64,000 nt of DNA from an uncultured virus (IMG/VR IMGVR_UViG_3300030100_000622) (taxonomy: Duplodnaviria > Heunggongvirae > Uroviricota > Caudoviricetes): IMG/VR virus record IMGVR_UViG_3300030100_000622. The stretch is one strand, 5' to 3'. Below, piece after piece: positions 32,646 to 64,000 of the stretch. Position 1 is the first letter of the stretch. Every line of letters begins with the position of its first letter. A program made the translations under genes and the position numbers. The notes beneath the pieces were generated by a model. That model saw nothing but the letters and a program-made list of their open reading frames with translations. It had not been told where the DNA came from and searched no databases.

Positions 32646-33536
32646 ATGAAAGTGGTTTATGGACATACAGATTCTATTTATGTTCAGATTGATTCAGTCG
32701 AGAAGGCTGAAAAAGCAATCAAGCAGATAGAAGAAAGCGTTAGAGAACATTTTCCTAATGTTATGGGATTAGATGAACACCCTGTTCAATTAGAGTTTGA
32801 GAAGTATTATTCGGCATTGGGCGTTGGTACAACTAAGAACCGTAACGCTGGTTTAGTATCTTGGGAGGATGGAGTTTGGTTAGATAAGCCAAAATTCACA
32901 ATGACAGGATTTACTGCCAAAAGAGTTAGTGAAACAAAGTTAGCGAAAGAAGTACAAACTAATACTCTAACAATGTGGGTTGAAAACAAATCTCATGCGG
33001 AAATCACTAATTATTTACATGGAGTTTATAGTGATACCTTGAATGGTAAAGTACCGATTACTTCAGTAATTAAAAGAAGCCGTCTTAGAAAAGATAGGCT
33101 AATGGTAAAATGTCCCAACTGCGACAAAAAATACAGTCTAAAGGAATGTCAGAAATTACAAGAATTACCATACTGTACTAAATGCTCATGTGCAGTTAAG
33201 AAGTTTGTAACGCTGGATGGTAAAACGCCTTCTTTGGGTTCCGGTATTGCTGGCGTTATTTACGGCTGGAAAAACAATATAGAGTTTGACGACTCTTATT
33301 TGTTTTTGAAAGTAAAGACAAATGAATCGTGGATTCATCCACTAAAACACGATAGAAGAAATGTTGAGTATATTTCCGGTGCAACCTTGAAGGACTTTGA
33401 TGATGTAAAGCCCGATTGGAAACATTATGCTGAACAAGTAGTGGATAAAGCAAAGCCCATTTACAAGGCTATGGGATGGGATATATCGAGCATAAGAACA
33501 AATAGAATACAAGCAAGTTTGGAGGAATGGTTTTGA
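32646..33536 (+). CDS. polB: family B DNA polymerase, C-terminal subunit (motif C, thumb, Zn finger, PIP box)
   Basis: VVYGHTDS, LEFEK, KNRNAG, CPNC..CTKC, QASLEEWF; own GGTGA SD. Confidence 0.92.
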   Translation: MKVVYGHTDSIYVQIDSVEKAEKAIKQIEESVREHFPNVMGLDEHPVQLEFEKYYSALGVGTTKNRNAGLVSWEDGVWLDKPKFTMTGFTAKRVSETKLAKEVQTNTLTMWVENKSHAEITNYLHGVYSDTLNGKVPITSVIKRSRLRKDRLMVKCPNCDKKYSLKECQKLQELPYCTKCSCAVKKFVTLDGKTPSLGSGIAGVIYGWKNNIEFDDSYLFLKVKTNESWIHPLKHDRRNVEYISGATLKDFDDVKPDWKHYAEQVVDKAKPIYKAMGWDISSIRTNRIQASLEEWF

Positions 33537-41279: not shown

Positions 41280-41627
41280 TTACTCCACCTCGACTTCTAT
41301 AAAAAATTCGACTTCTTCGCTTGTACTGAAAGGCCCAATTGCATCAAAAGGTATTCTTAGAAGTAAATTACCCGAAGAATCTTCTAAACTAATTTCTCTC
41401 AATGTGCGACCCGTTATTGATGATTCAGAACCTTGTACGGTTACTTTCCATTGAACAGTATTTTCTGCTGACTTTACTCCAATTGCTGATACATTACTGC
41501 TTAACAAAGGAACATCTAATTCTAATTGTGCAGGAGAAGTAGCGTTTCCGCCAGAACCAACATTAGCCTCATTAAATGTACTAATTAAGTAACTTGCTAT
41601 TAGCGATTTTCCTTTATCCGTTATCAT
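41280..41627 (-). CDS. baseplate/tail-fibre attachment-like protein
   Basis: MITDKGK..IA...GSG..T...L..REI.L pattern. Confidence 0.55.
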   Translation of the reverse strand: MITDKGKSLIASYLISTFNEANVGSGGNATSPAQLELDVPLLSSNVSAIGVKSAENTVQWKVTVQGSESSITGRTLREISLEDSSGNLLLRIPFDAIGPFSTSEEVEFFIEVEVE

Positions 41628-44600
41628 AATTCTTCCTCAATTAAGTCTGTATATGTCACCGACTGACCGCCTGTGAATCCCATTGGAGTGGTCGAAGTAT
41701 TTAACACTGAACCGAAACCAAGTGTGGCCCCTCCCGTAGCAAGGCGTTTTCTTATCTTTATTCTAATTTCTTTGACCTTCATACTTTCAAAGTGGTCTGT
41801 TGATTTAGAAGGCTCTTTGAATGTCTTTGCTCTTGTTAGCCCATGTAATTTTTCATTCTCCAATAGAATTTCAGTGAATCTATCCCCTATATTTTTATTG
41901 TTATTTCCTAATTTTAATTTGCTAAAACCATCTAAACTATGTTCTATTTCTATAATTAGGTATCTGCCTCTTTCAATATTTTGTGAAGGAAAAGATATTT
42001 CTATTTCATCAGCAGGTCGTAAAGTGAATAAGTTGTCGCCTCGTACTTCTATGTCCACTAATGTTCCTACATCACTATGTATAGATAATAATTTATTTGC
42101 TCTTGCATCTGCATCTTTTTGAGTGTAAATATTTTCATCAGTAATTTCTAAAGTTTTTCTATTTCCCGTTTCTTTTATGTTTCTAACATTTTTTCTATGT
42201 GATTTTACATTTCTTCCATAAATAATAACTTCATTATATTGGTCGAAAAGTTTTCCTTCTTTTGTAATGCTTCTTATGCTATATTTATCATCTCTTTCAG
42301 AAATCAAAACCTTTGGCTTATTTAGTGAGGAATCTCCATCTCGCAATATGAATTTTTTATCATATAATACTCTTCTATTTTTATTATCTAATATGTAATT
42401 AGCCGCAGTTAGCAAACTGACTCCTTTGAATTCGGGCGATAAAAAGACAGGATATTCGGTGACATCTTGTTTTGTAAATTCTAATCCTTCATCTTCAAAT
42501 AAGTCGTTTAATAAATCATCTGATTCAAAACAAATATTAACTCCGCAACCTATTGTAGCATCTGTATAATTGCCTTTAATCTCTTTTGGAACTGTTATAT
42601 CAAACACTTCACCTATTGAAGTAGCACCAACCATATCTCCTATCTTTGAAAAATTCAATTCATGTATATTTAGGTCAGCCACATAAGAAACAGTAACTTG
42701 AGATTGTAAATTACTTATTCCATCTGTTATTCCTGAAGAAAAGGAATCATTATTATCTAATAATTTATTTGAACCTAAATAATCTGAAGGGGTTCTATAA
42801 ACCAAATGACTGCCCGACCCTTTGTTACTTGGGTCGGCTATAATATACATAGAAGATACTCCTTCACCGAACCCTGTTTCTGAATATATATGCGGAGAAA
42901 CATTATCTTTGTCGGCGGTTCGCACTTCAACAATAAATTTCTCATATCTTTTATTATGGAATCTGAAGGATTTAATATCTTTGTAGCAACTATCACTATA
43001 TGCCATCTTAGTATATTCTGGTGTTAAGGTATTTAATTTAATATTTTTAGGACTAAAATTGTAAAAGGTATTTTCTGCAACTCTCATTACTTTATACACT
43101 TTACCAATAGTGCTGGCATTATCAATTACTATTTGATGTATATTATGTGTACTTGTTCTTTTTATCGTGTGAGAAACAACATAATGAATATAGGTTGGAA
43201 CAGTTTCAAATAATCCTTTAAGTGTTCTATTATGATTAGCCTGTTGTGTAGCATCACTTGTGTAGTATGCTTCAGTTGTTTCTGACGCAGAAACAGTTGG
43301 AGATGAGGAATTCCCGCCATGTTTTTTTACCCCATACTGTTTTCCATGATGGCTAACTAAATAGCAACCTGTTAAATTAGGCGCATAGTTTAACCAAGCG
43401 TTGCTTCTTTGTGATGCTACATCACTACCATCTAAATCTCTAATAGTGAACTCAAATAACTTAGTGTTTCCTCCACCAACAGTAGTGACGATTTGAGAAG
43501 CAGTATAACAGTTTGTGCCAAATTTATCCACAAATTCAAGATATGGTTTGAACAACATATATGCACCATCAGCAATATATGGTGATTTACCATCAGTGCT
43601 TTCCACTCCTTCACTTTCATAAAATCCAAATCCTTGCTCTGTTTTAGTTTCTAACATTATTTTATGATGCAGGTGAGCCGTTCTTCTTTCTAACAAAGGA
43701 ACAGATTTTGTTATTTGAGATGAGGTCATACCTGCACTTATTTCTGCTTGTCCTCCATCTTCAATATCGAACCTATCTAAAAACACAGGCAAAGTATGAG
43801 AGTATAAGTTTTGAAGATGATTTTCAGTGCTTGCAAGGCTCTTAACTACTTCTGAAATATGCAGGTTATTTTCGGTATGAACCAACGATTCATCAAGAGC
43901 AAGGCTATATTTTAATTCTCTTGCTGATGGTGAAAAATCATTATATCTTTCATTAAAATAACAATATTCCATAATTAGATATTTATTTCCATAAGTTTGG
44001 TTTGCGGCAGTCTTTCCTAAATATATACCATCTGATAGCCAAATATGATATTGAACATTATTAGTTAATGCTGATGTAGCGGCAGTCACTAATAGACAAT
44101 AATCATATTGGCCCGAATAAGGCTCATTTCGTATTCTATATCCTTGATAGTCGTTTTGTGGTGGATTAACATAATTTACATCTATTCCGCTTGCACCTGC
44201 GGCAGTCAGTAATTTATGGTCTGCTGTTCTTCCTTTTAATGAATAATAATCCCCTGTCCAATTATTTCCAGCCTCAGAATATCCGCCACCTATCGAGCCA
44301 CCTACTCTATGTAATAAAGAGATTTTAATTCCTCTCATTGTGTTAGTACCCTCCGGCCCATAATCTGCGGCTTGGGCTTGGTGGTTTTCTTGTGTAGTAC
44401 CTGTTACGCCTGTATTATCTTGTAAAAGTAATTCATGTGCATTAGCAGTATTATTTATGGCATCCGACCGACTCAAAGAAACATCTTCTGTTGTTTCTTC
44501 TATTGTATCAATTATACGAACACCGGATAATGTTGTTAATGTTGCCGCAGAAGCAGAAAAAGTTGGTGGCAAAGCAACGCTGGCTGTTCTTTCTTCTGAA

Positions 44601-47600
44601 GCCAAGTTATCAACTAAACTATACTTGGTATCTCCGCTATTACTTGGCAAATACAAATCATGGTAAGCATCTCCATTATCTTCTGCATAGCCATCCATAG
44701 TACCTGTTGCGCCCGCTTCATTATTCATAACTGCGCCTTTTAACATATGAATTTCGCCATCTTCGGGCATAGATGTAAATGTGTCTTTAGCCCCATGTCC
44801 TCTTATGTATAAGTCATTATATTCTGCACTATCATCAACAATAGCATACACTTCTGTATCTATTCCCGTAGTGAGAGCAAGACCATCATTGATATGTGGG
44901 CCGGTAATTCCATATTTAGAACTAAATTGAATTAAAGCCGCCCATGTTTGTGAAGCGGCATATCCGATATAATGACCTCCTGCACTAAAGAAAAGATAAT
45001 TTTTTGCTTCTAAATCTGGAATATCATTAAGAACCATTCTATTATTAGATGTATCATAACTGTTTATGACTAATGCACCACCACCAGCGTTTTTGACTCT
45101 TGCATAATTAGTCATTCTATTGGCAGTTTCCAACTTCAATGTTTTATTTTTATCCGGCAAGTTTTCTGCATCAACTGAATTAAAATGCCAATCCAATGTC
45201 ATTTCGACAAGCCTTAACATGCTAAACTTCTTTAGTGAATTTATTGTTGGCGCAGAATTTATTATAGCAACAGGGCTATTATCATCGGTATCAGAAATAG
45301 AAACTCCGCCTCCTACATAAGCACTATGAGAATTAGAAACATTAGAAAGAGTGCCTTTATTCCTCAACATAATACTAAAGTCTGTTAAATCTCTTGAGCC
45401 ATAATACAGACTTGTTTTTCTTAAATCAGATTCCGGCAATAAATCACAAGTAGTAAATAAGAAATTTCTTGACACTTTAGAATCCATTTGCCTAAGTGTT
45501 CTTTCCCATGTTCTTGCCACACTTGCATTTAGAACATGAGGTAATCCAGCAATAGGGTATCTAATTCTTGATGACATATTCCCTAAATAGTAATCAAAGA
45601 AATTACTTCCTCTTGATGGCTTGTTTCCTCTTCTTTCATAAAATCCTTGTAACTGTTTTATATTACTAAAAGAAGAATCATCTTGGTCTGTTTCAGTAAA
45701 AGATGGCGTAGTGATATAAGAAGGAGTGAATCTATGAGAAATAGCATAATAATTTGTTTGGCTTCTAACATCATAGTAAATTGTATTATTGCTCTCTTCA
45801 TTCAAAGTGGTTGTATCTGTGCCGTTTAACTTTATTTGGGGTAAATCACCAATTGGGTATTCATCGAGAGCATTATAGTTTCCTTGCTCTAAATCAACAA
45901 ACTTGTAATATGGAGAACCGTATCTTTTAATGTAATTAGTAGTAATTGTGGCATCTCCCGCATCATGTATGTTTATATTAAATGGCAATAAACCAGAAGT
46001 ATTGCTAACTATTGGACTTGCCAATTGTATTAAAGAAGCGGGCCTATTTATGAAATACATATCGGTTGTATTTTTTTGAGTTAATTTGTAAATATTATCT
46101 CCATTACTTGCAGTGGCTTCTCTATCTAATCTAATTTCATTATAAGAGTAATGTGAAGCCCCGCTACCAGAACCGGCTTCTGCACGAATAAAATATCCTT
46201 GGAATGTAAATACTCCACTATTTTCTGTAAATACAGGTTCGCCTCTTTTGAAATGAGTTTGAATTGCGGCAGAAGAGGTAGTTATTCCTGTTTTAGATAT
46301 AGAAGTACCTTGCGCATCCATAGTAGTATCTTTTAATTTCATATAGTCACTTTCATATACATCGGGACTTGTATCTGTGAGAACAAACTCTTGGTTTGTA
46401 GTTACATCATTTCTATCAACTCTGCCTAAATATAATCCGACTCTTGGGGCAAGACTAATTGTTGTGGACTTATCTTCAGCAGTGGTTTTTAATACAATAA
46501 AATCACTTAACCCATTAACTACATTATGACTAAAGTAATTCCCTGATACATCATCTTTTAGTTTTGCTTGAAACGCTCTGTCTTTTTTGACATTACCGAC
46601 ACTTTCAAAGTTATATCCAACTCCTTCAGCATTTGTGCTTTCTGATGTTCCGGCCAATAAAAACTCTTTATTTCCTGTTGTAGTATAAATTGGCGGGTCT
46701 GCTGTGGTTCTGCTTGATACTGAAACACCACTTGTAAAGAATATTCCTTTATCTGATGCGCCTTCTATTGAACTAACAGTATTGGAGTTTGTAGCACTTG
46801 AACTTAGTGCCTTTTTGAAAGTATAATGTTTGTTAATAGAACCAACATATAGTTGAGAACCATAGGCCGCAGTAGCACAAGAACCAAATTCTAAGGTATA
46901 AGAACCCGGCCCTGATGGGCTTATTACAGAAACAAGTCCTATAAAATCTCCATCAGAATTATACAAAGCATCTCCAACTGATAGATTATTAATTACTCCC
47001 GAAACCCCAACAGAAGTATTGTTTAGTGTTAATGCAACAGCAAAAGTAATGTCTGTGCCATTTGCTTTTTTAGCCTTAGATATATTAGATAAAGGCGACA
47101 TAGAAGAATGAATTAAATCTGCACTAAATAATGTGTTTTTATTTATGATGGGGCTAATTAATTTAGAGAAATCATTACGGCCAGCAATTTCAACAACAGG
47201 CTGACCCATTTCAGTATCTTCTATTATTTCTTCTATTTTGCCATCAAAGATTTCTAAATCAATAGTAAAACTACCGAAGTTATAATCAATGCTTGTTTTA
47301 GAATCGGCTTCTGTTCTATAATGCGTTCTTTCTGGTTCTAATCTAAAATACTGATGTGTTTTATCCCCAAAAGAAACTCGTATTTCCTTTTCAGTATAGT
47401 TTCCTCCTGCTAAGGTAACTATGGCATTACTAAATCTTGATTCATTATATGAACCCAATGTAATATTATTTATTTTGTAAGTTAAACTGTCTATATCTAA
47501 AGGATGGTCTGTTAATGCACTTAGTCCTGTATAGGTGACATCAGTATCTAATTCTAAAGTAGTCATTAGTGTTCTTGTTTTGGGCGACCACATTCTTCTG

Positions 47601-49018
47601 TAAATCTTATCTCCTGCACTAAATGGGGCAGAGCCATGATTTGTAAAGGTGGATTCTGTTTCTAATCTCCAATAAGATTGGCACACAACAGTATGTAATG
47701 AAGAAGAAGGCGCACTTATGGTGCTAATAAAACCAATATAATCACCAATTTTAACTTCTTCATGTTGGCCCCAAAGTGTTCTGGCATCATAATCTGCTTC
47801 TGTCTTAAATTTGAGATTTGTACTACCACTTGTAATTGAATCTAATGTTAATTTTGTTTCAAACCAGCCTCTCAATTGACCTTCGCTAATTTTTTCTTTT
47901 AGAACATATTTATCATTTAGAGCATTCTTTGAAGTAAAGGTTCTATTTCCATCAACTATTTTAGTTTCGGCAAAACTCGCTCTATCTTTCATTGAAGAGA
48001 ATGCTCTTGAACTAAACATATCTATTACTTTATTCAATACTTTAGGAGATTCTTCATAGTGTAAATAGGTATAAGGGCCAACTCTTCCAGCAGTACCGTT
48101 AGAGTCATCGGTATCTCTTCTAATATTAGGAAAATTAGTAGTATAATTTGTAAATTCCGTAACTGCGGAAAATTGGTTTCTATCATCATAATAAAAAGAA
48201 GCCGAACTTGAAGTTGCTGGATTATCCATTTTTCTTTTATTATCTATTAATGTAGTGGATAATGTAAATTTACTGTTATCTATTATTTTTAAGTGAGCAT
48301 CTTGAACAGTAACAAATATTGAAGTAAAATCACTTAGAGTAATTGCTGAATTATCTGTGCTATAATTATAACATAATCTATATTTGGTATTGTGGTCTAA
48401 TTCATTCTTTTTGTTTAATCTATCGTTGTAAAAAAACCAAAGCGGCCTTGCAACTATAAAATTAGTTAAGTGTGTGTCATCAGTAGTAGTAACTAATGCA
48501 CCAGCAGAAATAGCAACTACCGAAGTATCTGTTACTGCTGGCCCTTTGAATACAATAAACTTAGTGCCTTTTGGTATTTCACTACCTAATTTGGGAGTAA
48601 ATTCTAAAGCATCTCCTTCGACATCATCTGTGACTTCAGCAGTAATTTTAGCAAAATGATGTTGTTTATTGTCATCAGCAAATAAAAGAATAAAATAATC
48701 ATGCGTTGTTAAATTAATAGAATTATATTGTTGTCCTGTTTGAGTTTCATTAAAAAATGTCTTTACTCGATAACCGGGAGTTTTTGCTAAATTTTCACCA
48801 TAAGAATTATATGCGCCCGTTGTTTCTTTAACCATAGTAGTGGCTGTACTTGCATCAATTCTTATTTCTGCACATATGTATTTATTGTTTCTTGCATTAG
48901 TATTTGTAATAGAAGGATTTGTAGGACAATCAAAATTAACATTAAAACCGGCATTATTCCAAGTAGTGTTAATCGCAGTGTCTTTGTGAACACCTGTTTT
49001 ACGAACATATACTGCCAT
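41624..49018 (-). CDS. giant tail tip/hub protein (2464 aa)
   Basis: uninterrupted ORF after distal tail genes; C-terminus like phage hub proteins (NEVIIYG, L.P.D.I.I, Y.I.EIEH). Confidence 0.7.
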   Translation of the reverse strand: MAVYVRKTGVHKDTAINTTWNNAGFNVNFDCPTNPSITNTNARNNKYICAEIRIDASTATTMVKETTGAYNSYGENLAKTPGYRVKTFFNETQTGQQYNSINLTTHDYFILLFADDNKQHHFAKITAEVTDDVEGDALEFTPKLGSEIPKGTKFIVFKGPAVTDTSVVAISAGALVTTTDDTHLTNFIVARPLWFFYNDRLNKKNELDHNTKYRLCYNYSTDNSAITLSDFTSIFVTVQDAHLKIIDNSKFTLSTTLIDNKRKMDNPATSSSASFYYDDRNQFSAVTEFTNYTTNFPNIRRDTDDSNGTAGRVGPYTYLHYEESPKVLNKVIDMFSSRAFSSMKDRASFAETKIVDGNRTFTSKNALNDKYVLKEKISEGQLRGWFETKLTLDSITSGSTNLKFKTEADYDARTLWGQHEEVKIGDYIGFISTISAPSSSLHTVVCQSYWRLETESTFTNHGSAPFSAGDKIYRRMWSPKTRTLMTTLELDTDVTYTGLSALTDHPLDIDSLTYKINNITLGSYNESRFSNAIVTLAGGNYTEKEIRVSFGDKTHQYFRLEPERTHYRTEADSKTSIDYNFGSFTIDLEIFDGKIEEIIEDTEMGQPVVEIAGRNDFSKLISPIINKNTLFSADLIHSSMSPLSNISKAKKANGTDITFAVALTLNNTSVGVSGVINNLSVGDALYNSDGDFIGLVSVISPSGPGSYTLEFGSCATAAYGSQLYVGSINKHYTFKKALSSSATNSNTVSSIEGASDKGIFFTSGVSVSSRTTADPPIYTTTGNKEFLLAGTSESTNAEGVGYNFESVGNVKKDRAFQAKLKDDVSGNYFSHNVVNGLSDFIVLKTTAEDKSTTISLAPRVGLYLGRVDRNDVTTNQEFVLTDTSPDVYESDYMKLKDTTMDAQGTSISKTGITTSSAAIQTHFKRGEPVFTENSGVFTFQGYFIRAEAGSGSGASHYSYNEIRLDREATASNGDNIYKLTQKNTTDMYFINRPASLIQLASPIVSNTSGLLPFNINIHDAGDATITTNYIKRYGSPYYKFVDLEQGNYNALDEYPIGDLPQIKLNGTDTTTLNEESNNTIYYDVRSQTNYYAISHRFTPSYITTPSFTETDQDDSSFSNIKQLQGFYERRGNKPSRGSNFFDYYLGNMSSRIRYPIAGLPHVLNASVARTWERTLRQMDSKVSRNFLFTTCDLLPESDLRKTSLYYGSRDLTDFSIMLRNKGTLSNVSNSHSAYVGGGVSISDTDDNSPVAIINSAPTINSLKKFSMLRLVEMTLDWHFNSVDAENLPDKNKTLKLETANRMTNYARVKNAGGGALVINSYDTSNNRMVLNDIPDLEAKNYLFFSAGGHYIGYAASQTWAALIQFSSKYGITGPHINDGLALTTGIDTEVYAIVDDSAEYNDLYIRGHGAKDTFTSMPEDGEIHMLKGAVMNNEAGATGTMDGYAEDNGDAYHDLYLPSNSGDTKYSLVDNLASEERTASVALPPTFSASAATLTTLSGVRIIDTIEETTEDVSLSRSDAINNTANAHELLLQDNTGVTGTTQENHQAQAADYGPEGTNTMRGIKISLLHRVGGSIGGGYSEAGNNWTGDYYSLKGRTADHKLLTAAGASGIDVNYVNPPQNDYQGYRIRNEPYSGQYDYCLLVTAATSALTNNVQYHIWLSDGIYLGKTAANQTYGNKYLIMEYCYFNERYNDFSPSARELKYSLALDESLVHTENNLHISEVVKSLASTENHLQNLYSHTLPVFLDRFDIEDGGQAEISAGMTSSQITKSVPLLERRTAHLHHKIMLETKTEQGFGFYESEGVESTDGKSPYIADGAYMLFKPYLEFVDKFGTNCYTASQIVTTVGGGNTKLFEFTIRDLDGSDVASQRSNAWLNYAPNLTGCYLVSHHGKQYGVKKHGGNSSSPTVSASETTEAYYTSDATQQANHNRTLKGLFETVPTYIHYVVSHTIKRTSTHNIHQIVIDNASTIGKVYKVMRVAENTFYNFSPKNIKLNTLTPEYTKMAYSDSCYKDIKSFRFHNKRYEKFIVEVRTADKDNVSPHIYSETGFGEGVSSMYIIADPSNKGSGSHLVYRTPSDYLGSNKLLDNNDSFSSGITDGISNLQSQVTVSYVADLNIHELNFSKIGDMVGATSIGEVFDITVPKEIKGNYTDATIGCGVNICFESDDLLNDLFEDEGLEFTKQDVTEYPVFLSPEFKGVSLLTAANYILDNKNRRVLYDKKFILRDGDSSLNKPKVLISERDDKYSIRSITKEGKLFDQYNEVIIYGRNVKSHRKNVRNIKETGNRKTLEITDENIYTQKDADARANKLLSIHSDVGTLVDIEVRGDNLFTLRPADEIEISFPSQNIERGRYLIIEIEHSLDGFSKLKLGNNNKNIGDRFTEILLENEKLHGLTRAKTFKEPSKSTDHFESMKVKEIRIKIRKRLATGGATLGFGSVLNTSTTPMGFTGGQSVTYTDLIEEEL

Positions 49019-55580: not shown

Positions 55581-55609
55581 GCTACTCTCTCCTTTCCTTT
55601 ACTAACTTA

Positions 55610-56122
55610 CTAAGGGAGTGATAATGCGAATCTTTTTGCTTCTGTTGTGACTTTATATCCGAATAAACGCTTGGCTCTGTCATTACTTTCTGTTCTATTT
55701 CCTAAAAATAATTGGTCGAATTTAGAACCATCACTTGCAGTGTAGCCATTACGCTTGCTCTCAATTACCCGACGAAGTATTAGGTATATAGCCCTTAGCC
55801 TATCTTTGCCATATGAAGCGTCAATTCCGCCCCTTTCATCGTGCAATACTCGGATATGGGTAGTGAATGTATATGTTTCATTTCTGATGTCATACATGGC
55901 AGTTGGGTATTCAACATTTTGTCCATCCTCAAAAACAATAATAGTGGTTGGTGAACGACTTAAATCCACTCTAACACCTTTATGTTTTGTAGTATTTCTA
56001 ACATCGAGAAATTCGGGAGTAACTGCATGAGAAGCAGAAATTGTACCTGCACTAACTAATGCAGTGGCATTAGCAGACCAATTGTTTGATAGTAAATCTA
56101 TGAAAAGACTGACTTCATCCAT
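55610..56122 (-). CDS. tail terminator-like protein
   Basis: size and position upstream of tail tube. Confidence 0.5.
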   Translation of the reverse strand: MDEVSLFIDLLSNNWSANATALVSAGTISASHAVTPEFLDVRNTTKHKGVRVDLSRSPTTIIVFEDGQNVEYPTAMYDIRNETYTFTTHIRVLHDERGGIDASYGKDRLRAIYLILRRVIESKRNGYTASDGSKFDQLFLGNRTESNDRAKRLFGYKVTTEAKRFALSLP

Positions 56123-56322
56123 GCTGATACCTCCTGTGTTACTTCTTTTTGAATATATTTGGCATATTCTTCTTCAGCAAATTGCATGACTTCATCATCA
56201 CTAAAAGATATATCATATCCTAACTCTTCTGATAACTCTTGTAAAATCAATTGTCTTTCTTTTTGAATGTTAAGAAACTCTCTAAATTTTTGTAAATCAA
56301 CTTTTATTGCCATGCTTATCAA
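56098..56322 (-). CDS. hypothetical virion-cluster protein
   Basis: 74-aa ORF in operon. Confidence 0.55.
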   Translation of the reverse strand: MISMAIKVDLQKFREFLNIQKERQLILQELSEELGYDISFSDDEVMQFAEEEYAKYIQKEVTQEVSAWMKSVFS

Positions 56323-57626
56323 TCCAAAAAGTACACAATATCTCCTTTGCTCTTTAGTATATCCATTCCTTCTTTTCGCAGAATATCGTACTTTTCCTTT
56401 GTGCTAATATTGCCACCTGTTTCTGCAATTAGAACGCTTTGGTCGTCATGTCTTAGTATTTCAGCCGCCACCAATTTTGTTGCGGCTTCATGGATAGCAG
56501 AAGGTACTCGACCATCACCTGCTAAATAAGTTACAATTACTGAATTCTTTGTATGGTATGGATAATCTCTCAAAAAGAATATTCTGCCTTCTTCTTTAAT
56601 AGTCCAATAAGAACCCAATCTTCTCAAATCTTCTTTATCAGTAAAGTTAGTCAAAGTACAAACAGTAGGAATAGTATCGCTTGTAGTGAATGTTAAATCA
56701 TTACTACCGGAACCTGTTGCGGCGGCACTTAATTCAATAGTAGTCGCATTAGTAATAGAAGCAATAGTAACTGTGCCACTAATACCTGTTCCTGTAACTG
56801 TCATACCTACGGCTAATTTAGAAGAATCAGCCACGGTTACGGTAGCATCAGTATTTACTGTCGTACATGCTTGTTTTATTGTTGCTTTTAGCACACAATC
56901 GGCCCCATCATCACCGGAAAGCAAGGATGAAATAAGTACCTGCTTGCCATTTGCTCGGTCTTTTGCAGCATAAAAAAAGTCTGATATTGAAAGACTTGAT
57001 GAAGTTAGTGACTTAGCCGCAGTAGCCCCTGTAAAAGAAGAAGTGCTTGATGGAAATTGTTCATTAATTAAGGAAACTAAATCGTTATTTGTTGTCTTAA
57101 TTCCAAAGGTTGTGCAAAACTCATCATTACCTAAACTGCTAACAGTATTTTCTGCAATCATTTCAAATGCTACTCCACTGTTAGGTAATTCCAAAATAAT
57201 AGAATGAATATCTCGATAGTTTTCTTGTAGCAAAACCTTGGCTTGAGCAGAAGCCAATTCTTCATATTCGCTACCTTGCCAAACTTGCAACGATACGACT
57301 TTACGAAGTTTCATTTTTGCTAATTGGACAAACCCTACATATCCGCCATAATAGGAGTGCATTGGTAATGTCTTGAATTGAAAATCGTGAAATTCATTTG
57401 TTGTAATAATTGGTCTAAAAGAACGCTTCACTTTATCATCAATTATTCCTTCAACTCTTTTGATAATTGCACCGACTTGTGCTAAAGTCGGATAAGTGGT
57501 GCTGGCAGTAAAAGCAGGAACCTGTAATAGATTAGCCACTTCTGTTGCATCAGTATAAAATCCTCGACCATCAGTGTAACTTGGATTAATTGAAGTATAA
57601 TCGCTTGGCGATATGGTGGTTCCCAT
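56319..57626 (-). CDS. head-tail adaptor-like protein with beta-rich insertion
   Basis: Y....EV..LL N-terminus; V.VTY.AG...VP..I..A C-terminus. Confidence 0.6.
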   Translation of the reverse strand: MGTTISPSDYTSINPSYTDGRGFYTDATEVANLLQVPAFTASTTYPTLAQVGAIIKRVEGIIDDKVKRSFRPIITTNEFHDFQFKTLPMHSYYGGYVGFVQLAKMKLRKVVSLQVWQGSEYEELASAQAKVLLQENYRDIHSIILELPNSGVAFEMIAENTVSSLGNDEFCTTFGIKTTNNDLVSLINEQFPSSTSSFTGATAAKSLTSSSLSISDFFYAAKDRANGKQVLISSLLSGDDGADCVLKATIKQACTTVNTDATVTVADSSKLAVGMTVTGTGISGTVTIASITNATTIELSAAATGSGSNDLTFTTSDTIPTVCTLTNFTDKEDLRRLGSYWTIKEEGRIFFLRDYPYHTKNSVIVTYLAGDGRVPSAIHEAATKLVAAEILRHDDQSVLIAETGGNISTKEKYDILRKEGMDILKSKGDIVYFLD

Positions 57627-57627
57627 C

Positions 57628-59676
57628 TTAATCCAACTCCTGCATTAGCGTTCTTATTTTATATTTTAATGTGTCAATATCATCCATTAGTTCTTTGTTG
57701 CCCGTTTGAGTTTGTTTTGAATAAGGAATTACAAAATAAGTAACAAGAGAACATTCAACTTTAATTGTTGCTTTTGATAATTTGTCATTAGGGTCACTAA
57801 CATCTAATTGCCCTGTTCTAAACTTCATTACTCCTGACTCATATATGTCAGCAAAACCCTCTTCATTTACAAGTAAAATTTTGTTATCTTGTTCAAATTG
57901 TCTTAGGTCTTCCATATGTTCTGTAAAGTCAAATTTAACATATTTAATAGTCCAAAACTTTTCTCTTTCTTCGGGACTTAACTCATTATATTGTTTTTGA
58001 CTAATAACTACTTGCTCATATTTTTCTTTGTCATCTTCTTTATGAGAAATATATTTGCCATCTTCTTGAGGCTTTTCTATTTTTTTACCTTTTTTATCCT
58101 GTAAAGCATACCAGACTCCTATATTGAATTCTTCAAAATCTTTGCCTTCAATTTCTTTACCATATTCATCTGCTACCATTTGAGTTAATTTTTTAGTTTT
58201 TCCAGATGCGGTAGTAACAGTAGCGGCGGCTCTTATTCCTTTGACTTCATTTTTAGGTCTTAATTGCGACCATGTTTTAGCCGCTTTTTCAATTTCTTGA
58301 GTGATAGCATTCTCTAATGTATCCCATAAAGAATCAACATTTAATTCAATTTTAATAGGGTCATTTACACTACCTCGAATTTCCCATGTTACAGGATATT
58401 TGCTTTCCTGCCATTTATCTTGACTATACATCATAGGAATAGTAGCCTTGCCATCTTGTGCATTTTCCGCCCAAATTTCTTGTATCTCGGCTGTTAATGG
58501 TGCGGCTAATGTTCTTGGAACAATCATATTCTTTTCTTTATATTGTCCAAGAGTTAGCATTTTATCTTCATCACCTTCAACTTGTAGTTTTGAATTAATT
58601 TGAGAAATACTCTTTCCTTGTTTCTCCGCTTCTTTAGCCGCTTTAGCATATTCTTTTTTGTATTCTTTATATTGTTCAATGACTCTTCTCAATGCTTCTT
58701 TTTCACCAATATTAACTTGACCTGCTGCTTCTCCTGCAAAACGACCTTCTTCTTCAAGCATATACAATTTAGTGGTAAGGAATTGTTTGTCACCAAACTC
58801 GTTAATGAAGTCTTGAGGCAAACTAAAATCAAAACTAAAATCCAAAGTTTCAATATTGTCTTTTTTGTATGATTTTGTTGTTTCAAGAGTTTCCCCTAAT
58901 TCTGCACTTAATTCTTCTCTTCTGTCAGCCGCTAAATTAGTAACTGCTTTTTCTAAATCTGATTCACCTAAAGATGGCCATTCTAATAACATATGGCATG
59001 TATATGCTTTCAAATCCTTATCTGTATTATTAGCAGTACCATAAGTCATTTTTCCTGTTGGTATTCCTGTTTTTGGATTTACCATTTCTTTGAAAATCAT
59101 TTGTTCTTTTGCAATAGGATTACCCAAAAAGTATTCTTCAATATCATCATCACTTAATTCAGGAGGTTTTTCTTCGGTTTCTCTAAGAAATTGTAATCCC
59201 GATAATCTTCGAGTTACTGCGGTGTTAAGAATGTCTTTGAGTTTTTTATCTGAAATGTATTCTATATTTTTTTTATTAGGAATAATCGTTTGGCCTCCAC
59301 CAACAACAACCTTATCTTTGCGTCTTTTATCTCCTTCTGTTCTTCTAATTTTTGTAGTTTCTAATTTACCTGTTTTCAACCTTGGCCTTTCAACAAACTT
59401 TTTCCATCCGTCTGAATCCTTCAGCCAATTTTCTAAAGGTTCTTCTAAAACAACATCAACAATTTTAGTTTTAACCCAATTTACAAATATTTTTTCATCT
59501 TCTGGATTTTCAGTATCTTCTAATATATCAACTGTGTCCATAAAATTGTTGTAAAACTTTCTATTTCTTTCTTCTTTCAAATAAGTTCTAAATTCCGCTA
59601 AAAGATTACTTACTGATGTATCATCCTCGGTATCTTGAGTATAACCATCCCAATCAAAAGATACCATATTATTCAC
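57628..59676 (-). CDS. hypothetical charged protein
   Basis: 682-aa ORF, GAGGTGA SD. Confidence 0.7.
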   Translation of the reverse strand: MNNMVSFDWDGYTQDTEDDTSVSNLLAEFRTYLKEERNRKFYNNFMDTVDILEDTENPEDEKIFVNWVKTKIVDVVLEEPLENWLKDSDGWKKFVERPRLKTGKLETTKIRRTEGDKRRKDKVVVGGGQTIIPNKKNIEYISDKKLKDILNTAVTRRLSGLQFLRETEEKPPELSDDDIEEYFLGNPIAKEQMIFKEMVNPKTGIPTGKMTYGTANNTDKDLKAYTCHMLLEWPSLGESDLEKAVTNLAADRREELSAELGETLETTKSYKKDNIETLDFSFDFSLPQDFINEFGDKQFLTTKLYMLEEEGRFAGEAAGQVNIGEKEALRRVIEQYKEYKKEYAKAAKEAEKQGKSISQINSKLQVEGDEDKMLTLGQYKEKNMIVPRTLAAPLTAEIQEIWAENAQDGKATIPMMYSQDKWQESKYPVTWEIRGSVNDPIKIELNVDSLWDTLENAITQEIEKAAKTWSQLRPKNEVKGIRAAATVTTASGKTKKLTQMVADEYGKEIEGKDFEEFNIGVWYALQDKKGKKIEKPQEDGKYISHKEDDKEKYEQVVISQKQYNELSPEEREKFWTIKYVKFDFTEHMEDLRQFEQDNKILLVNEEGFADIYESGVMKFRTGQLDVSDPNDKLSKATIKVECSLVTYFVIPYSKQTQTGNKELMDDIDTLKYKIRTLMQELD

Positions 59677-59677
59677 C

Positions 59678-60316
59678 TCACATTAACCATTTAGCCCAAG
59701 CCGCACCTTTTTGAATTGCTGAACCTAATCCTAAACCTGCTTTTGGTGGCTCATATGACATTTGACCGTTAGCATCAATCCAATAAGGTCTGCCATATCC
59801 GTCTGTTCCATTTGGAGGAACAGGATAACCTGTACCATTATTCACTGCACCTTGCATTTGTTGGTATTGTTGCATATTGCCTGTTACTCCTGCAATAGCC
59901 GCACCTGCACTTGGCCCACCGCCAAATCCTTGAGATTCAAGATATTGTTGCTTAGCCATTTTTCTTTGATTAACTACTTCAGTATTAATTGCAGAGTTTA
60001 ACAATTTTTGAATATCTAAATCAATATTTGCTTGTGTTATTTTTTCAAACTCTCTCGAAGCATCAGCATCCACCGAGATTGTGCTACCTGTCATATTGAA
60101 TTTTAGTTGATTTAATAATTTGCTGACTGTTCTCTCAACAACATCTTCCATCAATTGCTCAAGAGCAACCAAGAACATTTCTCCATGATATTGAAAAAAC
60201 TCTTCGACATGGTTATCTTGCAAAGATAGCAAGTTATTCATTGACTTAAATTGCTGGTCGCCTTGTGCCTGTACTGCACCTAATACTGTTCCGTTGCTTG
60301 TCCCTAATATTCCCAT
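59678..60316 (-). CDS. helical protein with Q/G-rich linker and C-terminal amphipathic helix
   Basis: ends LGLGSAIQKGAAWAKWLM; GGAGG SD. Confidence 0.7.
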   Translation of the reverse strand: MGILGTSNGTVLGAVQAQGDQQFKSMNNLLSLQDNHVEEFFQYHGEMFLVALEQLMEDVVERTVSKLLNQLKFNMTGSTISVDADASREFEKITQANIDLDIQKLLNSAINTEVVNQRKMAKQQYLESQGFGGGPSAGAAIAGVTGNMQQYQQMQGAVNNGTGYPVPPNGTDGYGRPYWIDANGQMSYEPPKAGLGLGSAIQKGAAWAKWLM

Positions 60317-60318
60317 AC

Positions 60319-60981
60319 CTATTCCTCCTTAGTTTCTTTTTTATCATTTTGAGGCTTAACTCCTTCTTTAATCATTAAATAATTAAGTCTATCAGTTAGA
60401 ATATTTATTTCCCCAACAATCTCTATCGCTTCGTTGGTTGCACTCCTATTATCTCCTAATGTCGGTGGCTTTATTAAATAACCGCTTGCAGTCAAAGATA
60501 TAATATCCTCTTTACTCAAATGGGTTACAGGGCCACTTTTCAATATCTTAGGCATTTTTGGTTTGAAGGCCGCAAAGTCAAGTCCATGTTTATCAGCGAG
60601 TATTGTTTGTTGTAGCATTTCTAACTGCGTGAACATAGACGCATGTTTAGGGCAATATGTACCTGCTAATGGTCGCCCTTTTACTACTCCATCTAAAGGA
60701 ATAGGAGGCCGCATATAGTCGCCAGCCTCCCAAATATGATGAAAACCGCAAACTACACATCTATCTTTTAGATTGAATTTTTTCCCGTATTTTAAAAACA
60801 ACAATTTCTTAGGTTCGGGCTTTAATACCTTAATCAATTCATTCAGTTGTTTTTTTGGTTTATGTGCAATAAACTTGTATTCAGTTACTATTCCACTTGC
60901 TCTTGCCGCTTTCAACGGAGTCATAAAAGCCGTTGGTAGCGAATTTTGTCCTATTAGTTGGTTGTTATACATAATAATCAA
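60319..60981 (-). CDS. Zn-binding protein downstream of GTPase
   Basis: CVVCG...YCPKH. Confidence 0.7.
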   Translation of the reverse strand: MIIMYNNQLIGQNSLPTAFMTPLKAARASGIVTEYKFIAHKPKKQLNELIKVLKPEPKKLLFLKYGKKFNLKDRCVVCGFHHIWEAGDYMRPPIPLDGVVKGRPLAGTYCPKHASMFTQLEMLQQTILADKHGLDFAAFKPKMPKILKSGPVTHLSKEDIISLTASGYLIKPPTLGDNRSATNEAIEIVGEINILTDRLNYLMIKEGVKPQNDKKETKEE

Positions 60982-61661
60982 TAATCCTTTATCATTGAAG
61001 TGATTCCTTTATACACCATTTCGGGTTCTGATTTAGCAGATACAATATATTTGAAACAAGGTATTCCTTTATCATTCAGTTGCCGCATACCGTATTTGAA
61101 AGGTTCAAATATTTCATGTTTATCCATGGTTAATCCTTCTTTCAATGGGTACTTTTCTCCCCATATGTCATATTTGTTAGCCCATATTCCGACTGCCATA
61201 GGATAATCTTTTTCTTTTTTCTTTCTGCCTGTGGGCCATCGAGATGCAATAATTGTATCAACTAAAAATTTCCATGCTACTTGATGGTCTAAGTTTGAAG
61301 AATTATCTAAATGTCTGTGGTCTATCATAAATATAACATATCTGACTTTACGCCCTTGCATATCTTTTACCCATTCTTTCCAATAGATTGCTTCACCGCC
61401 AACATCAGCACTTTTAACTGTATGAGAATCTCCATCAATTTTTACTGTTTTTCTCGAAGCCCTGTGTAATCCTACTGTCCGTTCATTTATTTGCGGTACT
61501 TCGCCTCTTGTTCTTAGTTGATTACTTAATGTTGTTTTACCAACCATAGTTGCACCATAAATACCGAAGTTAATTGCATAAATTTTTTTCCAAAAACCTA
61601 TCATCGCTTCTCCAACAAGTATAGCAAATCCTGTCATTACTGACAATATTAGACCTCCCAA
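60978..61661 (-). CDS. Ras-superfamily (Arf-like) small GTPase with hydrophobic N-terminus
   Basis: G1 GATMVGKTT, G2 RTVG, G3 DVGGE, G4 ANKYD, G5 SAK. Confidence 0.9.
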   Translation of the reverse strand: MGGLILSVMTGFAILVGEAMIGFWKKIYAINFGIYGATMVGKTTLSNQLRTRGEVPQINERTVGLHRASRKTVKIDGDSHTVKSADVGGEAIYWKEWVKDMQGRKVRYVIFMIDHRHLDNSSNLDHQVAWKFLVDTIIASRWPTGRKKKEKDYPMAVGIWANKYDIWGEKYPLKEGLTMDKHEIFEPFKYGMRQLNDKGIPCFKYIVSAKSEPEMVYKGITSMIKDY

Positions 61662-61864
61662 GAATGCCAGAAGGTGTCTAATATCCAGCCGATAACATTA
61701 ATGTCAAAAACACCCATTATGTTTCCAATAAAGAATGCTGTTAAGGTAGCGCAGGTTCCCCAAAACCATGCTCTCATTTTGAAGAAAAGCATGTCTGCTG
61801 AATGCGCTCTTGATTGATTATAGATATAATCATTATCAGTTAGGCCCATTATGTCTGAAAGCAT
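61649..61864 (-). CDS. small membrane protein
   Basis: hydrophobic segment AWFWG..LTAFFIGNIMGVF. Confidence 0.7.
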   Translation of the reverse strand: MLSDIMGLTDNDYIYNQSRAHSADMLFFKMRAWFWGTCATLTAFFIGNIMGVFDINVIGWILDTFWHSWEV

Positions 61865-61873
61865 TTAACCGCC

Positions 61874-62272
61874 TCACTGAAGAGTAGCGGCTAAAAAGTC
61901 TGCACCGACTGTATTATCATCGGCTTCAACGGTTGGTGCAACACCATATGGACTAAAAGATGTCGAATACTGCTTTGCAGATTCTTGCATCTTTCTCAAC
62001 TGTTGCTCATCTCTTGCTTTTCTCTCCCAATAGGCCGCAATTTTTCTATCAAGAAGCCACATCTCAATTTTGTCATTAAGAACCAAATCAAATACTGCTT
62101 TCATAATCATAATTGCACCCACTGTCATTAGACCAAACAAGATAGAATGGGCCAATACTCCGTGTGGGAATGTTATACCATAGTTAGCATAAAAAAATAC
62201 ATTTGCACCACTAAGCGCACCGACAAATAAAATTGTCATAATCAACCGTGTGTCTTTATTTAATACTGCCAA
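61874..62272 (-). CDS. two-TM membrane protein with coiled-coil tail (TTG start after GAGGTG)
   Basis: two hydrophobic helices then charged helix. Confidence 0.7.
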   Translation of the reverse strand: MAVLNKDTRLIMTILFVGALSGANVFFYANYGITFPHGVLAHSILFGLMTVGAIMIMKAVFDLVLNDKIEMWLLDRKIAAYWERKARDEQQLRKMQESAKQYSTSFSPYGVAPTVEADDNTVGADFLAATLQ

Positions 62273-62282
62273 AATTAACACC

Positions 62283-62591
62283 TCAAGAGAAGTGAACCGA
62301 TACTGCCGCCCCCGTACCCGTACCTGTGGATATATCCAAATATATTCCATTAGAGCAGATAGCACCATGTAAATCCATCTCAATGATTTGTGGAGATGAA
62401 GGGTCGGCAGGGTCAAGAACAAGTCTAATCATTTCTTTGCCAGAAGCGGCTGAAGCATTATCAAATAATCTAACTGTTGTAGTCGCACCCATACCTGTTC
62501 TAAGACAATGAACAGAAACTAATCTGCTTCTTTCGCCAGAAACGGCTTCACTTGCAGTTAATACTCCACTACTTCGACATACTGACGACAT
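62283..62591 (-). CDS. small beta-rich virion protein
   Basis: VRLFDNASAASG..GIYLDI pattern, head-gene cluster. Confidence 0.55.
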   Translation of the reverse strand: MSSVCRSSGVLTASEAVSGERSRLVSVHCLRTGMGATTTVRLFDNASAASGKEMIRLVLDPADPSSPQIIEMDLHGAICSNGIYLDISTGTGTGAAVSVHFS

Positions 62592-62645
62592 ATTGGTTCC
62601 CTCGATTTTTGTTTGGGGATAACTCCCTCTTAACACTTGCGTAAA

Positions 62646-62975
62646 TCATTCCGATTCAGCAACAGGTTTTGGTGCTGAAACTTTCTTTGGCTTGGTTTTC
62701 TTCTTTTTAGGAAGAAGCAAGTCACACAATTGCTCATGGGTAGTAATAGTTTTACCTAATTCTCTTGATATGATTTCAAATCTATCAAGCCCAATTTGCA
62801 TTAGACCTTCTCTATCAGATTCCTCAAAGATAAAGTCTAAGTTTTTGTCACTGTATCGAACCAAAGCCCCAATTAAAGATGGAAATGCAACAGGTTCGGG
62901 GCTGGTTTTACTTAGCCCCAAACCCATTACATTCAAAGAAAACGGAGATGTACTACTCAGTTTTACTTTAACCAA
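62646..62975 (-). CDS. hypothetical protein with Lys-rich tail
   Basis: 109 aa after capsid genes. Confidence 0.6.
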   Translation of the reverse strand: MVKVKLSSTSPFSLNVMGLGLSKTSPEPVAFPSLIGALVRYSDKNLDFIFEESDREGLMQIGLDRFEIISRELGKTITTHEQLCDLLLPKKKKTKPKKVSAPKPVAESE

Positions 62976-62984
62976 TTAAATCCC

Positions 62985-63350
62985 TCAAAGATTACCAAAT
63001 ACTCTAACTCGGAATTGCATTCCACTATGAGTACCGCCGTCTGCTACTTCGGCAGGGGTCGCTTGCAACGCTTGAACCAATAACATTGTTACTGAATCTG
63101 CGCTGGTATAACTACCGTCTGTTCCCGAAATCACAAAGGTTGGATAAAACAATACATTACTTGTCCCTGTATGGGAAATAGAATTAATTGTATTTAGACC
63201 GAATTTGGTTGCAGACATCACTACTCCGCTTGCATCATATGTGGAAACATCAATTAGCGCATCAACCATATATTCATCACCATTTGCTCTTGGCTTGGTG
63301 AATCCCTTATGGTCGGCTAATAGCGTGACCGTAAATACCTCTTCTGTCAA
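62985..63350 (-). CDS. putative head decoration protein
   Basis: beta-rich, directly after MCP. Confidence 0.5.
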   Translation of the reverse strand: MTEEVFTVTLLADHKGFTKPRANGDEYMVDALIDVSTYDASGVVMSATKFGLNTINSISHTGTSNVLFYPTFVISGTDGSYTSADSVTMLLVQALQATPAEVADGGTHSGMQFRVRVFGNL

Positions 63351-63361
63351 GTTAAATCACC

Positions 63362-64000
63362 TCACAGAAGGTTGGTAATTTTACCTTGTCCTTTGAAGTA
63401 TGAACAACCGACTTCAGCAATTGTGCGGTAAAGAGCCTTGTTTCCAAGAGTACCGACACCGAATGGGTTTCCGTTGCTAATACCATCCTCAAAGTATTGG
63501 GTTGGTTTCATAACGCTCATCCATAGATGGTCTGTATCAAGGAATAGCATATCACTAATACAAGCCGAATTAACTCCGGTTGAAGCCATAGCCGCAACAG
63601 GAATCATAGGAATGTCGTAGTATGTTGATACACGGAATCCGACTTCTTGACCTTTAACACCACGAACACCATTTACAGTTGGAACAATTTCCTTTCTATC
63701 CATGAATCTCTCTTGTGCTTGTAGCAAATCAGAGATAGTTTGTAGTGTGTCATATCCTGTTAGAATAACCTTTGGTGAACCACCAGCAACACGAAGTAGT
63801 CTAATCATTTCATTTAGAACAGTTAGTGTCAATTGGCGGGCATCTGCACTTGCATATGAATCACCGAAAGTAACCTGTGCATCAAGATAAGAAGCACTTG
63901 TACGGTTCTTTCCGTATAGATTGTTTGCTTCGTTAGCAGTAGCACTTGTTAGAAGGTTTGCAGTAGCCATAGCCTGTAATTCTTCTGTTGAAGAAACAAC
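63362..64000 (-). CDS. major capsid protein (HK97-like), 5' truncated by window
   Basis: frame open to window edge; Y..IPMIP, DM.FLDT, GKITNL C-terminus. Confidence 0.8.
   Translation of the reverse strand, partial: VVSSTEELQAMATANLLTSATANEANNLYGKNRTSASYLDAQVTFGDSYASADARQLTLTVLNEMIRLLRVAGGSPKVILTGYDTLQTISDLLQAQERFMDRKEIVPTVNGVRGVKGQEVGFRVSTYYDIPMIPVAAMASTGVNSACISDMLFLDTDHLWMSVMKPTQYFEDGISNGNPFGVGTLGNKALYRTIAEVGCSYFKGQGKITNLL

Follow-up and report, generated by a model that had tools for sequence, protein, structure and literature searches.

A conserved five-gene cassette around a divergent Arf-like GTPase in a magrovirus, a candidate GTP-switched membrane module

We analyzed a 64,000-nucleotide stretch of DNA from an uncultured virus (IMG/VR record IMGVR_UViG_3300030100_000622), hereafter called the window, in which a sequence-only reading had singled out an Arf-like small GTPase gene and four companion genes at positions 59678-62272. 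The source virus is a magrovirus, a tailed virus of Poseidoniales (Marine Group II) archaea. This cassette turned out to be under purifying selection and to recur as a unit in four virus lineages that have diverged deeply from one another. It appears rather probable that it encodes a membrane-associated GTP switch module. The whole reading that we put forward, a GTP-switched module acting on the host membrane, most likely for virion egress, is more tentative, and we rate it a little short of probable.

A five-gene block kept together in four virus lineages

The five open reading frames (ORFs) lie on the minus strand and fill the whole of 59678-62272, as tightly packed as the sequence-only reading had described them. 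Neighbouring genes are separated by 2 to 11 nucleotides (nt) or overlap, and Shine-Dalgarno-like sequences (GGTG, GGCGG, GGAGGT) precede the starts, an arrangement that would fit translational coupling. The first gene (61874-62272) begins with a TTG codon preceded by GGTG and encodes TM2, a protein of 132 amino acids (aa) in which a hydropathy scan located two hydrophobic segments (residues 9-29 and 38-66), followed by a charged helical C-terminal tail rich in Lys, Arg and Glu. The second encodes TM1 (61649-61864; 71 aa), with one hydrophobic segment (residues 44-62 in the same scan) and a Trp-rich acidic tail. The third gene (60978-61661) encodes the Arf-like small GTPase, listed with 227 aa, in which the G1-G5 motifs are intact and switch II contains DVGGE. 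Its start is most likely the TTG codon at 61646, giving 222 aa, since GGAGGT lies 6 nt upstream of this codon and most homologues, of 217-222 aa, begin there. The fourth gene (60319-60981) overlaps the GTPase stop codon and encodes a Cys/His protein of 220 aa, probably translated from M4, with the signature CxxCxxHH...GR...GTYCPxH. The last gene (59678-60316) encodes a Gln/Asn/Gly-rich protein of 212 aa ('hel') with a glycine-rich C-terminal motif.

The ratio of nonsynonymous to synonymous substitution rates (dN/dS) was calculated by the Nei-Gojobori method between the window and related loci, pairs past saturation being dropped, and medians were compared for 11 genes; as dS ranged from 0.9 to 1.9, near saturation, these ratios are rough. 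The GTPase gave the lowest value of all (0.07), followed by the Cys/His protein (0.11), TM1 and TM2 (both 0.12) and the last protein (0.13). For comparison, the capsid gene fragment gave 0.16 and the three small genes upstream of the cassette 0.32-0.39. Values of 0.07 to 0.13 indicate that all five cassette genes are real and under purifying selection, the GTPase being the most constrained of the genes tested. An explanation by chance ORFs, or by a GTPase that is only a decayed and inactive relic, could appeal to the Pfam thresholds that are not reached. It is contradicted by these ratios, by the invariant G1-G5 motifs, by a confident structural model and by hundreds of conserved homologues, and its probability appears vanishingly small.

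Loci carrying the cassette fell into four lineages. Lineage A, that of the window, was represented by the best 80 of 256 IMG/VR stretches, with GTPases 80-98% identical, and lineage B, found via the homologue P0133 (about 33% identical), by the best 80 of 127 stretches; lineage C comprised 4 loci, and lineage D 11 loci from metagenomes, many of which are short. Among the 80 lineage-A loci, TM2 was found in 79, TM1 in 79, the GTPase in 80, the Cys/His protein in 71 and the last protein in 66. Many of the missing genes correspond to loci that end early, and wherever a locus extends far enough the five genes and their neighbours are collinear. The 80 lineage-B loci gave 78, 79, 80, 80 and 80 for the same genes. 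Their block consists of a 2-TM-type protein with a Gln-rich tail, followed by 1-TM, GTPase, Cys/His and Gln-rich proteins; a further small membrane protein comes after the Gln-rich one, and each of these is present in 73-80 of the 80 loci. All four lineage-C loci contain the five genes, which were found in 6 to 9 of the 11 loci of lineage D, where a 260-aa acidic protein is inserted before the GTPase.

Pairwise BLASTP between the lineage-A and lineage-B partners recovered only the GTYCPxH patch, so that profiles were needed to compare these proteins. We therefore judged homology between lineages by hhalign, in which off-diagonal pairs mostly remained below 5%, with a maximum of 8.9%. Between lineages the GTPase scored 99.9-100%, the Cys/His protein 92-100% and the last protein 51-96%. 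The Cys/His protein of the window gave 92-95% with lineages B, C and D, and its last protein 96.5% with lineage C (E 8e-10) and 51% with lineage B. Among lineages B, C and D, TM2 reached 98% and TM1 71-92%. The TM1 of lineage A scored 25.8% with lineage C (E 7e-4) and 4% with lineage B, and homology of the lineage-A TM2 to its B, C and D counterparts was undetectable (4-8%, best 7.6%), the architecture and position being the same. By profile comparison, at least three of the five window genes are judged homologous in all four lineages, and the two membrane genes keep their position and architecture throughout.

The genes surrounding the block are not the same. Small genes on the capsid side flank it in lineage A, a 2351-aa ORF lies directly upstream in lineage B (L084, 28-7083), a thermosome region precedes it in lineage C and other genes flank it in lineage D. 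Since the flanks differ between lineages, the five genes form a self-contained module and no part of the head or neck gene set. The sequence-only reading had staked its proposal on the genes being conserved together and on their products not being ordinary capsid assembly parts. The first is the case in four deeply divergent lineages, and the second is supported by the differing flanks.

In some relatives an extra ORF of 96-191 aa lies inside the cassette, at the junction between the GTPase and Cys/His genes in 12 of 72 loci (L003, L007, L023, L025, L026, L046, L059, L067, L073, L076, L078, L080) and at the TM1/GTPase junction in 9 of 80 (L029, L046, L049, L052, L053, L054, L072, L073, L075). 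These ORFs are unrelated in sequence; 14 of the 15 displayed begin with MW[KFE][DNE][IV][LI]K, a motif not found in this window, and that of L076 with MSLDEQ. Eight of the nine compared with Pfam had no match, and one 96-aa type gave a sub-threshold GNAT match.

The GTPase and its partner proteins

The sequence-only reading had credited the GTPase with all G1-G5 motifs, and we found G36-x4-G41 K42 T43/T44 and T62 (G1-G2) and D86-V-G88-G89, N162-K-x-D165 and S208-A-K210 (G3-G5) invariant in all 17 close homologues. The P-loop, DxxG and NKxD elements are retained across lineages. The JGI automatic annotation already gives some homologues the name 'GTPase SAR1 family protein', so that recognising a GTPase here is not in itself new. 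The catalytic Gln that follows DxGG in Arf proteins is not present in the lineage-A GTPase, in which, as had been noticed from the window alone, this residue is Glu (E90; 51 of 51 sequences). In lineage B (n=49) the same position holds Gln in 33 sequences, Glu in 9, Asp in 6 and His in one, and it is His in both lineage-C sequences and Gln in all eight of lineage D.

The hydrophobic N-terminal helix that had been claimed for the GTPase was recovered by two approaches. In the hydropathy scan it gave a Kyte-Doolittle (KD) value of 1.96, a mean hydrophobicity of 0.59 and a moment of 0.23. An AlphaFold model built with 38 aligned relatives (mean predicted local distance difference test score, pLDDT, 91.9; predicted template modelling score 0.85) showed residues 3-27 as a helix preceding strand 1. 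All four lineages retain a hydrophobic N-terminus, with median best 15-residue KD values of 1.88, 1.69, 1.27 and 1.48.

This model was compared with known folds. Foldseek returned Rabs and Arl1 on top with similar scores. In VIA-align, rows 1-32 were Arf6, Arl1, Arl3, Arf1, Arl6, Arl8 and Arl2 entries with Z from 18.8 to 17.7, the best match (Z 18.8) having a root-mean-square deviation of 2.3 over 162 residues. SR-beta came next, in row 33 (6frk_v, Z 17.7), and rows 34-38, down to about Z 17.2, were Arf, Arl and Asgard ArfR entries including GerdArfR1 and HodArfR1. The first Rab and G-alpha entries appeared at Z 17.2 and below. The single GTPase model resembled GTP-bound forms in this comparison.

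The SR-beta match raises the alternative of a targeting device, in which an anchored Arf-like GTPase would help to insert viral membrane proteins into the host membrane. SR-beta, itself an Arf-like GTPase, is anchored in the membrane by its N-terminus, and SR-beta and Sar1 both carry His after DxGG, as does lineage C. In addition, 3 of 17 members of the GTPase family touched Pfam SRPRB weakly. However, the window GTPase itself gave no SRPRB match, no SR-alpha-like partner was recognised in lineages A, B and C, and it seems costly to maintain a GTPase solely for the targeting of two tiny proteins. We consider this explanation highly improbable.

Profile searches of solved structures pointed in the same direction as the fold. 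With very distant relatives included, the GTPase profile matched GerdArfR1 (8OUN) at 6e-10 and aligned with the whole of Arl3 and of Arf1, whereas Ras was matched in its N-terminal half only. The entry 8OUN is the GDP-bound form of GerdArfR1, according to the available part of bioRxiv 10.1101/2024.02.28.582541. As some of the distant members are Pfam-Arf-positive or bacterial, we ran the search again with a profile restricted to the four viral lineages. At the top were now three concatenated RecA constructs (P-loop repeats), and below them came 8OUN (3e-4), Arl8/Arl10 in five chains (7e-4 to 6e-3) and a single Rab33B (7e-3); six of the seven non-RecA matches were ArfR or Arl8/Arl10. The earlier designation 'Arf-like' is thus upheld by predicted fold and by profile, on modest numbers. 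The GTPase is best described as a very divergent Arf-type switch, for which formal Arf membership fails on the Pfam threshold and the catalytic Gln.

The family appears isolated, since phmmer with the single GTPase retrieved just 63 proteins at E <= 0.001 among 1.84 billion representatives. The GTPase profile matched 858 clusters, and among the matches listed (120) all contigs were of 126 kb or less. A single-sequence search of solved structures found no GTPase, only a chance antibody match, and tblastn against the phage record collection gave no match. The distribution of the family thus appears to be virus-only, with no close cellular relative. Viral contigs yielded neither P0147 nor P0166, two distant relatives; a third, P0132, was absent from the viral contigs searched and present in metagenome contigs.

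All 51 lineage-A sequences of the Cys/His protein share C75, C78, H81, H82, C110, H113 and H132, a pattern from which we infer that it binds zinc, as the sequence-only reading had supposed. AlphaFold modelled this protein with low confidence (mean pLDDT 54), insufficient for a fold search. When lineages A and B were aligned, the Gly-Arg preceding GTYCPxH also appeared invariant. In the lineage-D homologue the Arg is replaced by Tyr or Trp, the second Cys by Ala or Ser and the His by Phe or Leu. A universal arginine finger (R103) and a universal zinc site were accordingly rejected, as lineage D is without the Arg, the second Cys and the His. The lineage-D protein (L178, 7802-8533, and relatives) is conserved and in place despite the loss of the second half-site and the Arg.

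The last protein consists of Gln, Asn, Gly, Met and Pro for 38% of its residues. It had been described as ending in an amphipathic helix; its C-terminal 18 residues are amphipathic only weakly (hydrophobic moment 0.27). Neither this protein nor the Cys/His protein had a usable match in the ESM Atlas. A C-terminal 'IGW' motif considered as a shared feature of TM1 was dropped, as only 10 lineage-A and 4 lineage-B sequences carry it, of 51 in each lineage.

Possible roles and genomic setting

We propose that the cassette encodes one viral module built around a membrane-associating GTP switch. The GTP-bound Arf-like GTPase would dock on the host cytoplasmic membrane via its hydrophobic N-terminal helix and would work there with TM1 and TM2, and the Cys/His and Gln/Gly-rich proteins may act as regulator, effector or scaffold. 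Made alongside the virion genes, the module would deform or breach the membrane, most likely releasing finished virions. Membrane binding, GTP control, contacts among the five products, late timing and the role in egress are all put forward here as predictions. Egress as the specific task, which we regard as possible and somewhat doubtful, is favoured for three reasons. No lysis-type family was found among the 45 window ORFs scanned against Pfam, in a window covering about 64 of roughly 92 kb of genome, in line with the earlier remark that no holin or endolysin is recognisable. The envelopes of Poseidoniales-group hosts may need little beyond membrane rupture for exit. Lastly, phage P2 offers a precedent for lysis genes lying between head and tail genes. 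A more elaborate version appears clearly unlikely, namely a minimal viral Arf/Sar-type machine that would free the tailed virions by vesiculating or rupturing the membrane. In it, TM1 and TM2 would bring the GTPase to the host membrane or switch it on, hydrolysis would be tuned by the Cys/His protein, and the Gln/Gly-rich protein would form a coat-like or condensate layer. If true, this would be a GTPase-driven mode of release without precedent among prokaryotic viruses, and would explain how tailed archaeal viruses leave wall-less hosts.

Several points weigh against this proposal. The window GTPase lies below every Pfam GTPase threshold, the best family being MMR_HSR1 with 19.8 bits against a cut-off of 21.9 (Roc gave 16.7 and Ras 12.9 bits), and it reached 24.7 bits against a cut-off of 42.5 for NCBIfam TIGR00231 small_GTP. 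Pfam Arf (PF00025) did not match it at E 0.1, and at E 1 the same model had no match in a near-identical 92.6-kb record (G001), 14 of 14 control genomes being positive. Only the distant relatives P0168, P0182 and P0166 exceed the Pfam Arf threshold. The profile match at 6e-10 leaned on three distant Pfam-Arf-positive sequences, and without the distant members the matches to Arf-type structures are weak. A further distant member of the alignment, P0180, has no Pfam match and comes from an Anaerolineae bacterial metagenome-assembled genome, which is uninformative on the host. In the structural comparison, the margin of Arf over Rab appears small, about 1.5 Z. The N-terminal helix looks more like an anchor than like an amphipathic helix. 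Among the partners, TM1 passes a crude hydrophobicity cut in neither of the two lineage-C sequences and in one of the six from lineage D, and the four partners of lineages A, B and C have no Pfam, PHROG or NCBIfam family. The idea of the Cys/His protein as a GTPase-activating protein (GAP) or guanine nucleotide exchange factor is weakened by lineage D, where neither the second Cys/His half-site nor the conserved Arg is retained. Late timing would rest on gene position, which is valid for lineage A alone; RNA-library contigs may include DNA, and transcripts, strand and level are not readable from them. Finally, no feature links the cassette to egress over another membrane task.

Such another task is the substance of a different explanation, which we regard as unlikely, namely that the five products alter the membrane or the cell cycle of the host during infection and that virion release is not their function. 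Possible tasks include a division block, vesicle shedding, masking of receptors against superinfection, or a membrane-bound site of replication or assembly. In its favour, the position of the cassette relative to the virion genes varies among the four lineages, and the GTPase is as conserved as the capsid protein, which would be expected if it fitted a conserved host target. The closest functional precedent, ArvA, also yields vesicles and no lysis (PMC10927574, in its available part). Against it, the lineage-A cassette is packed in the virion gene string with signals of translational coupling, and no partner resembles known division or vesicle proteins, OapB and OapC being absent.

The lineage-A setting could also suggest a morphogenesis factor: an assembly chaperone, a head-tail joining checkpoint or minor virion proteins, acting at the membrane. 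The cassette sits there between the capsid gene and a tail-tube-like gene, and its region and the capsid gene occur in the same RNA libraries. However, non-virion genes flank it in lineages C and D, none of the five proteins belongs to a PHROG structural family, and tailed-virus assembly is not known to require either membrane proteins or a small GTPase. This explanation seems quite improbable. The sequence-only reading had placed the cassette inside the virion operon and between head and neck genes. The first statement holds for lineage A and not for the other lineages with their different flanks; as to the second, a capsid gene lies upstream and a tail-tube-like gene downstream, and a neck gene was not identified. 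To return to the module that we favour, a membrane-acting GTP switch, its immediate neighbourhood in the window is as follows.

The gene for the C-terminal part of the major capsid protein (63362-64000, minus strand) runs off the window and matches SU10_MCP (E 1e-6) and phrog_24667, a major head protein. This ORF aligns only with the C-terminal parts of the profiles (SU10_MCP 136-254 of 292; phrog_24667 267-456 of 457). At 63789, RNA-library contigs of three runs diverge with an identical loose end, and another contig reads through; the end of the capsid ORF and this break could be explained by strain variation, by an intron or by a capsid gene in two pieces. Three small minus-strand genes (62283-63350; 121, 109 and 117 aa), with no family match and syntenic in lineage-A loci, separate the capsid gene from the cassette. 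Downstream of the cassette, at 56319-59676 on the same strand, are genes for a 682-aa Glu/Lys-rich protein and a 435-aa protein (phrog_17057, function not assigned). In the 682-aa gene one contig of run X1 has an extra T after position 58188, which could be a variant or an assembly error.

Parts of 55600-64000 were present in four marine metatranscriptome runs of one study, the best run containing 68% of the sampled words. Contigs of these runs covered the cassette at 99% identity or more, and those of run X1 reached all 30 bins of the interval at this identity. One RNA-library contig of 560 nt bridges the TM1/GTPase junction, and another of 1746 nt extends from inside TM2 to the capsid gene. 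Some bins were nearly uncovered in RNA-library contigs, and holes in contig data prove nothing. These contigs are compatible with co-transcription of the cassette and the virion genes, as a weak hint.

The plus strand of the window encodes, according to a Pfam and family scan, a UvrD-type helicase, ribonucleotide reductase, a TFIIB-like protein, a thermosome-type chaperonin, an ATP-dependent ligase, an RFC-like clamp loader, a split family-B polymerase, a Cas4-like nuclease and an ERCC4 nuclease, and the minus-strand block contains the tail-tube-like and capsid proteins. A split family-B polymerase is a known magrovirus trait; here it consists of two ORFs (29834-31498 and 32646-33536) about 1.1 kb apart. 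The replication half also encodes ThiF-like (15337-15894), pyrimidine-dimer glycosylase-like (8427-9086) and Myb-like DNA-binding (16250-16921) proteins, and the tail region holds a 2464-aa ORF (41624-49018) without a Pfam match. The assignment to magroviruses rests on the agreement of this gene set with that described for them in the available part of PMC5434244. The same source ties these tailed viruses to Marine Group II (Poseidoniales) archaea and ranks them among the most abundant viruses of the surface ocean. The nearest record, G001, is a virus contig of 92,582 bases rated 98% complete, with a GTPase 98% identical. One GTPase homologue is named in NCBI as a hypothetical protein of Poseidoniales virus YSH_150918.

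We found no paper describing the cassette in the literature on magroviruses, archaeal-virus small GTPases and Poseidoniales viruses. In the available parts of PMC5434244, PMC10160649 and PMC11706807, no mention of GTP, Ras, Arf or SAR1 was relevant, and the supplements available for them contained no occurrence, one file of PMC5434244 being unreadable. As far as the accessible text of PMC11706807 goes, egress of Poseidoniales viruses is discussed only for a different virus order, via holin-like genes. With its conserved, virus-only GTPase of Arf-like type and its constant membrane partners, the cassette provides a concrete five-gene set for work on the exit of archaeal tailed viruses. The GTPase would also extend Arf-type GTP switches past eukaryotes and Asgard archaea to viruses of Thermoplasmatota-type hosts, and it bears on the pre-eukaryotic spread of membrane-remodelling GTPases.

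Comparison with known systems

The ArvABC (OapABC) system of Haloferax volcanii shares several features with the cassette: an archaeal-type Arf-like GTPase with an N-terminal helix encoded in an operon with partners, MMR_HSR1 as the top Pfam label, and a zinc protein among the partners. In Haloferax, the Arf-like ArvA and its partner genes drive vesicle formation (PMC10927574, available in part, for these points). We searched the cassette proteins of lineages A, B and C, and G001, for the OapB domain (DUF2073, PF09846) and the OapC zinc-ribbon (DUF2072, PF09845) and found neither, the controls being positive (Haloferax and Methanosarcina for OapB). Because both domains are absent, the cassette is not an ArvABC system, and its partners, unlike those of ArvABC, include membrane proteins. 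The link to the haloarchaeal vesicle GTPase drawn by the sequence-only reading is therefore reduced to analogy.

In the Sar1/COPII system, the GTPase works with the membrane-bound exchange factor Sec12, the zinc-finger-bearing GAP Sec23 and a Pro-rich outer coat. On paper the cassette offers a similar set, with membrane proteins, a GTPase carrying a membrane helix, a Cys/His protein and a low-complexity protein, and the His after DxGG in lineage C is Sar1-like. However, no partner showed a sequence or fold relation to these components, and both the Arg and one Cys/His half-site are missing in lineage D.

Small proteins with one or two transmembrane segments and charged tails, encoded among late virion genes, recall phage holin cassettes, a nonspecific feature. 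TM1 and TM2 matched no holin family in Pfam or PHROG, and no endolysin gene is adjacent. In contrast to phage lysis cassettes, no lysis enzyme was recognised among the 45 window ORFs scanned. We know of no described lysis cassette that includes a GTPase.

Mimivirus Rab (PDB 5XC5) is likewise a virus-encoded Ras-superfamily GTPase and matched the fold of our model with Z 17.2. It belongs to a eukaryotic virus and is host-derived, whereas the cassette GTPase is Arf-like, comes from an archaeal virus, has no close cellular relative and occurs with fixed partners.

The closest likeness is with the Arf family itself (Arf1, Arf6, Arl1, Arl3, Arl8, and the Asgard GerdArfR1 and HodArfR1; PDB 8OUN, 8OUM, 8OUK), with which the viral GTPase shares the predicted fold (Z 18.8), a helix before strand 1 followed by basic residues, and the T-V-G, DVGG and NKxD-type motifs. 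In Asgard ArfR the N-terminal helix is required for membrane binding, according to the part of bioRxiv 10.1101/2024.02.28.582541 that was available. The viral protein departs from the family in scoring below the Pfam Arf threshold, in carrying Glu for the catalytic Gln (lineage A), in its far more hydrophobic N-terminal helix and in insertions of about 40 residues. Unlike the Arf proteins, it is virus-encoded and fixed beside membrane-protein genes.

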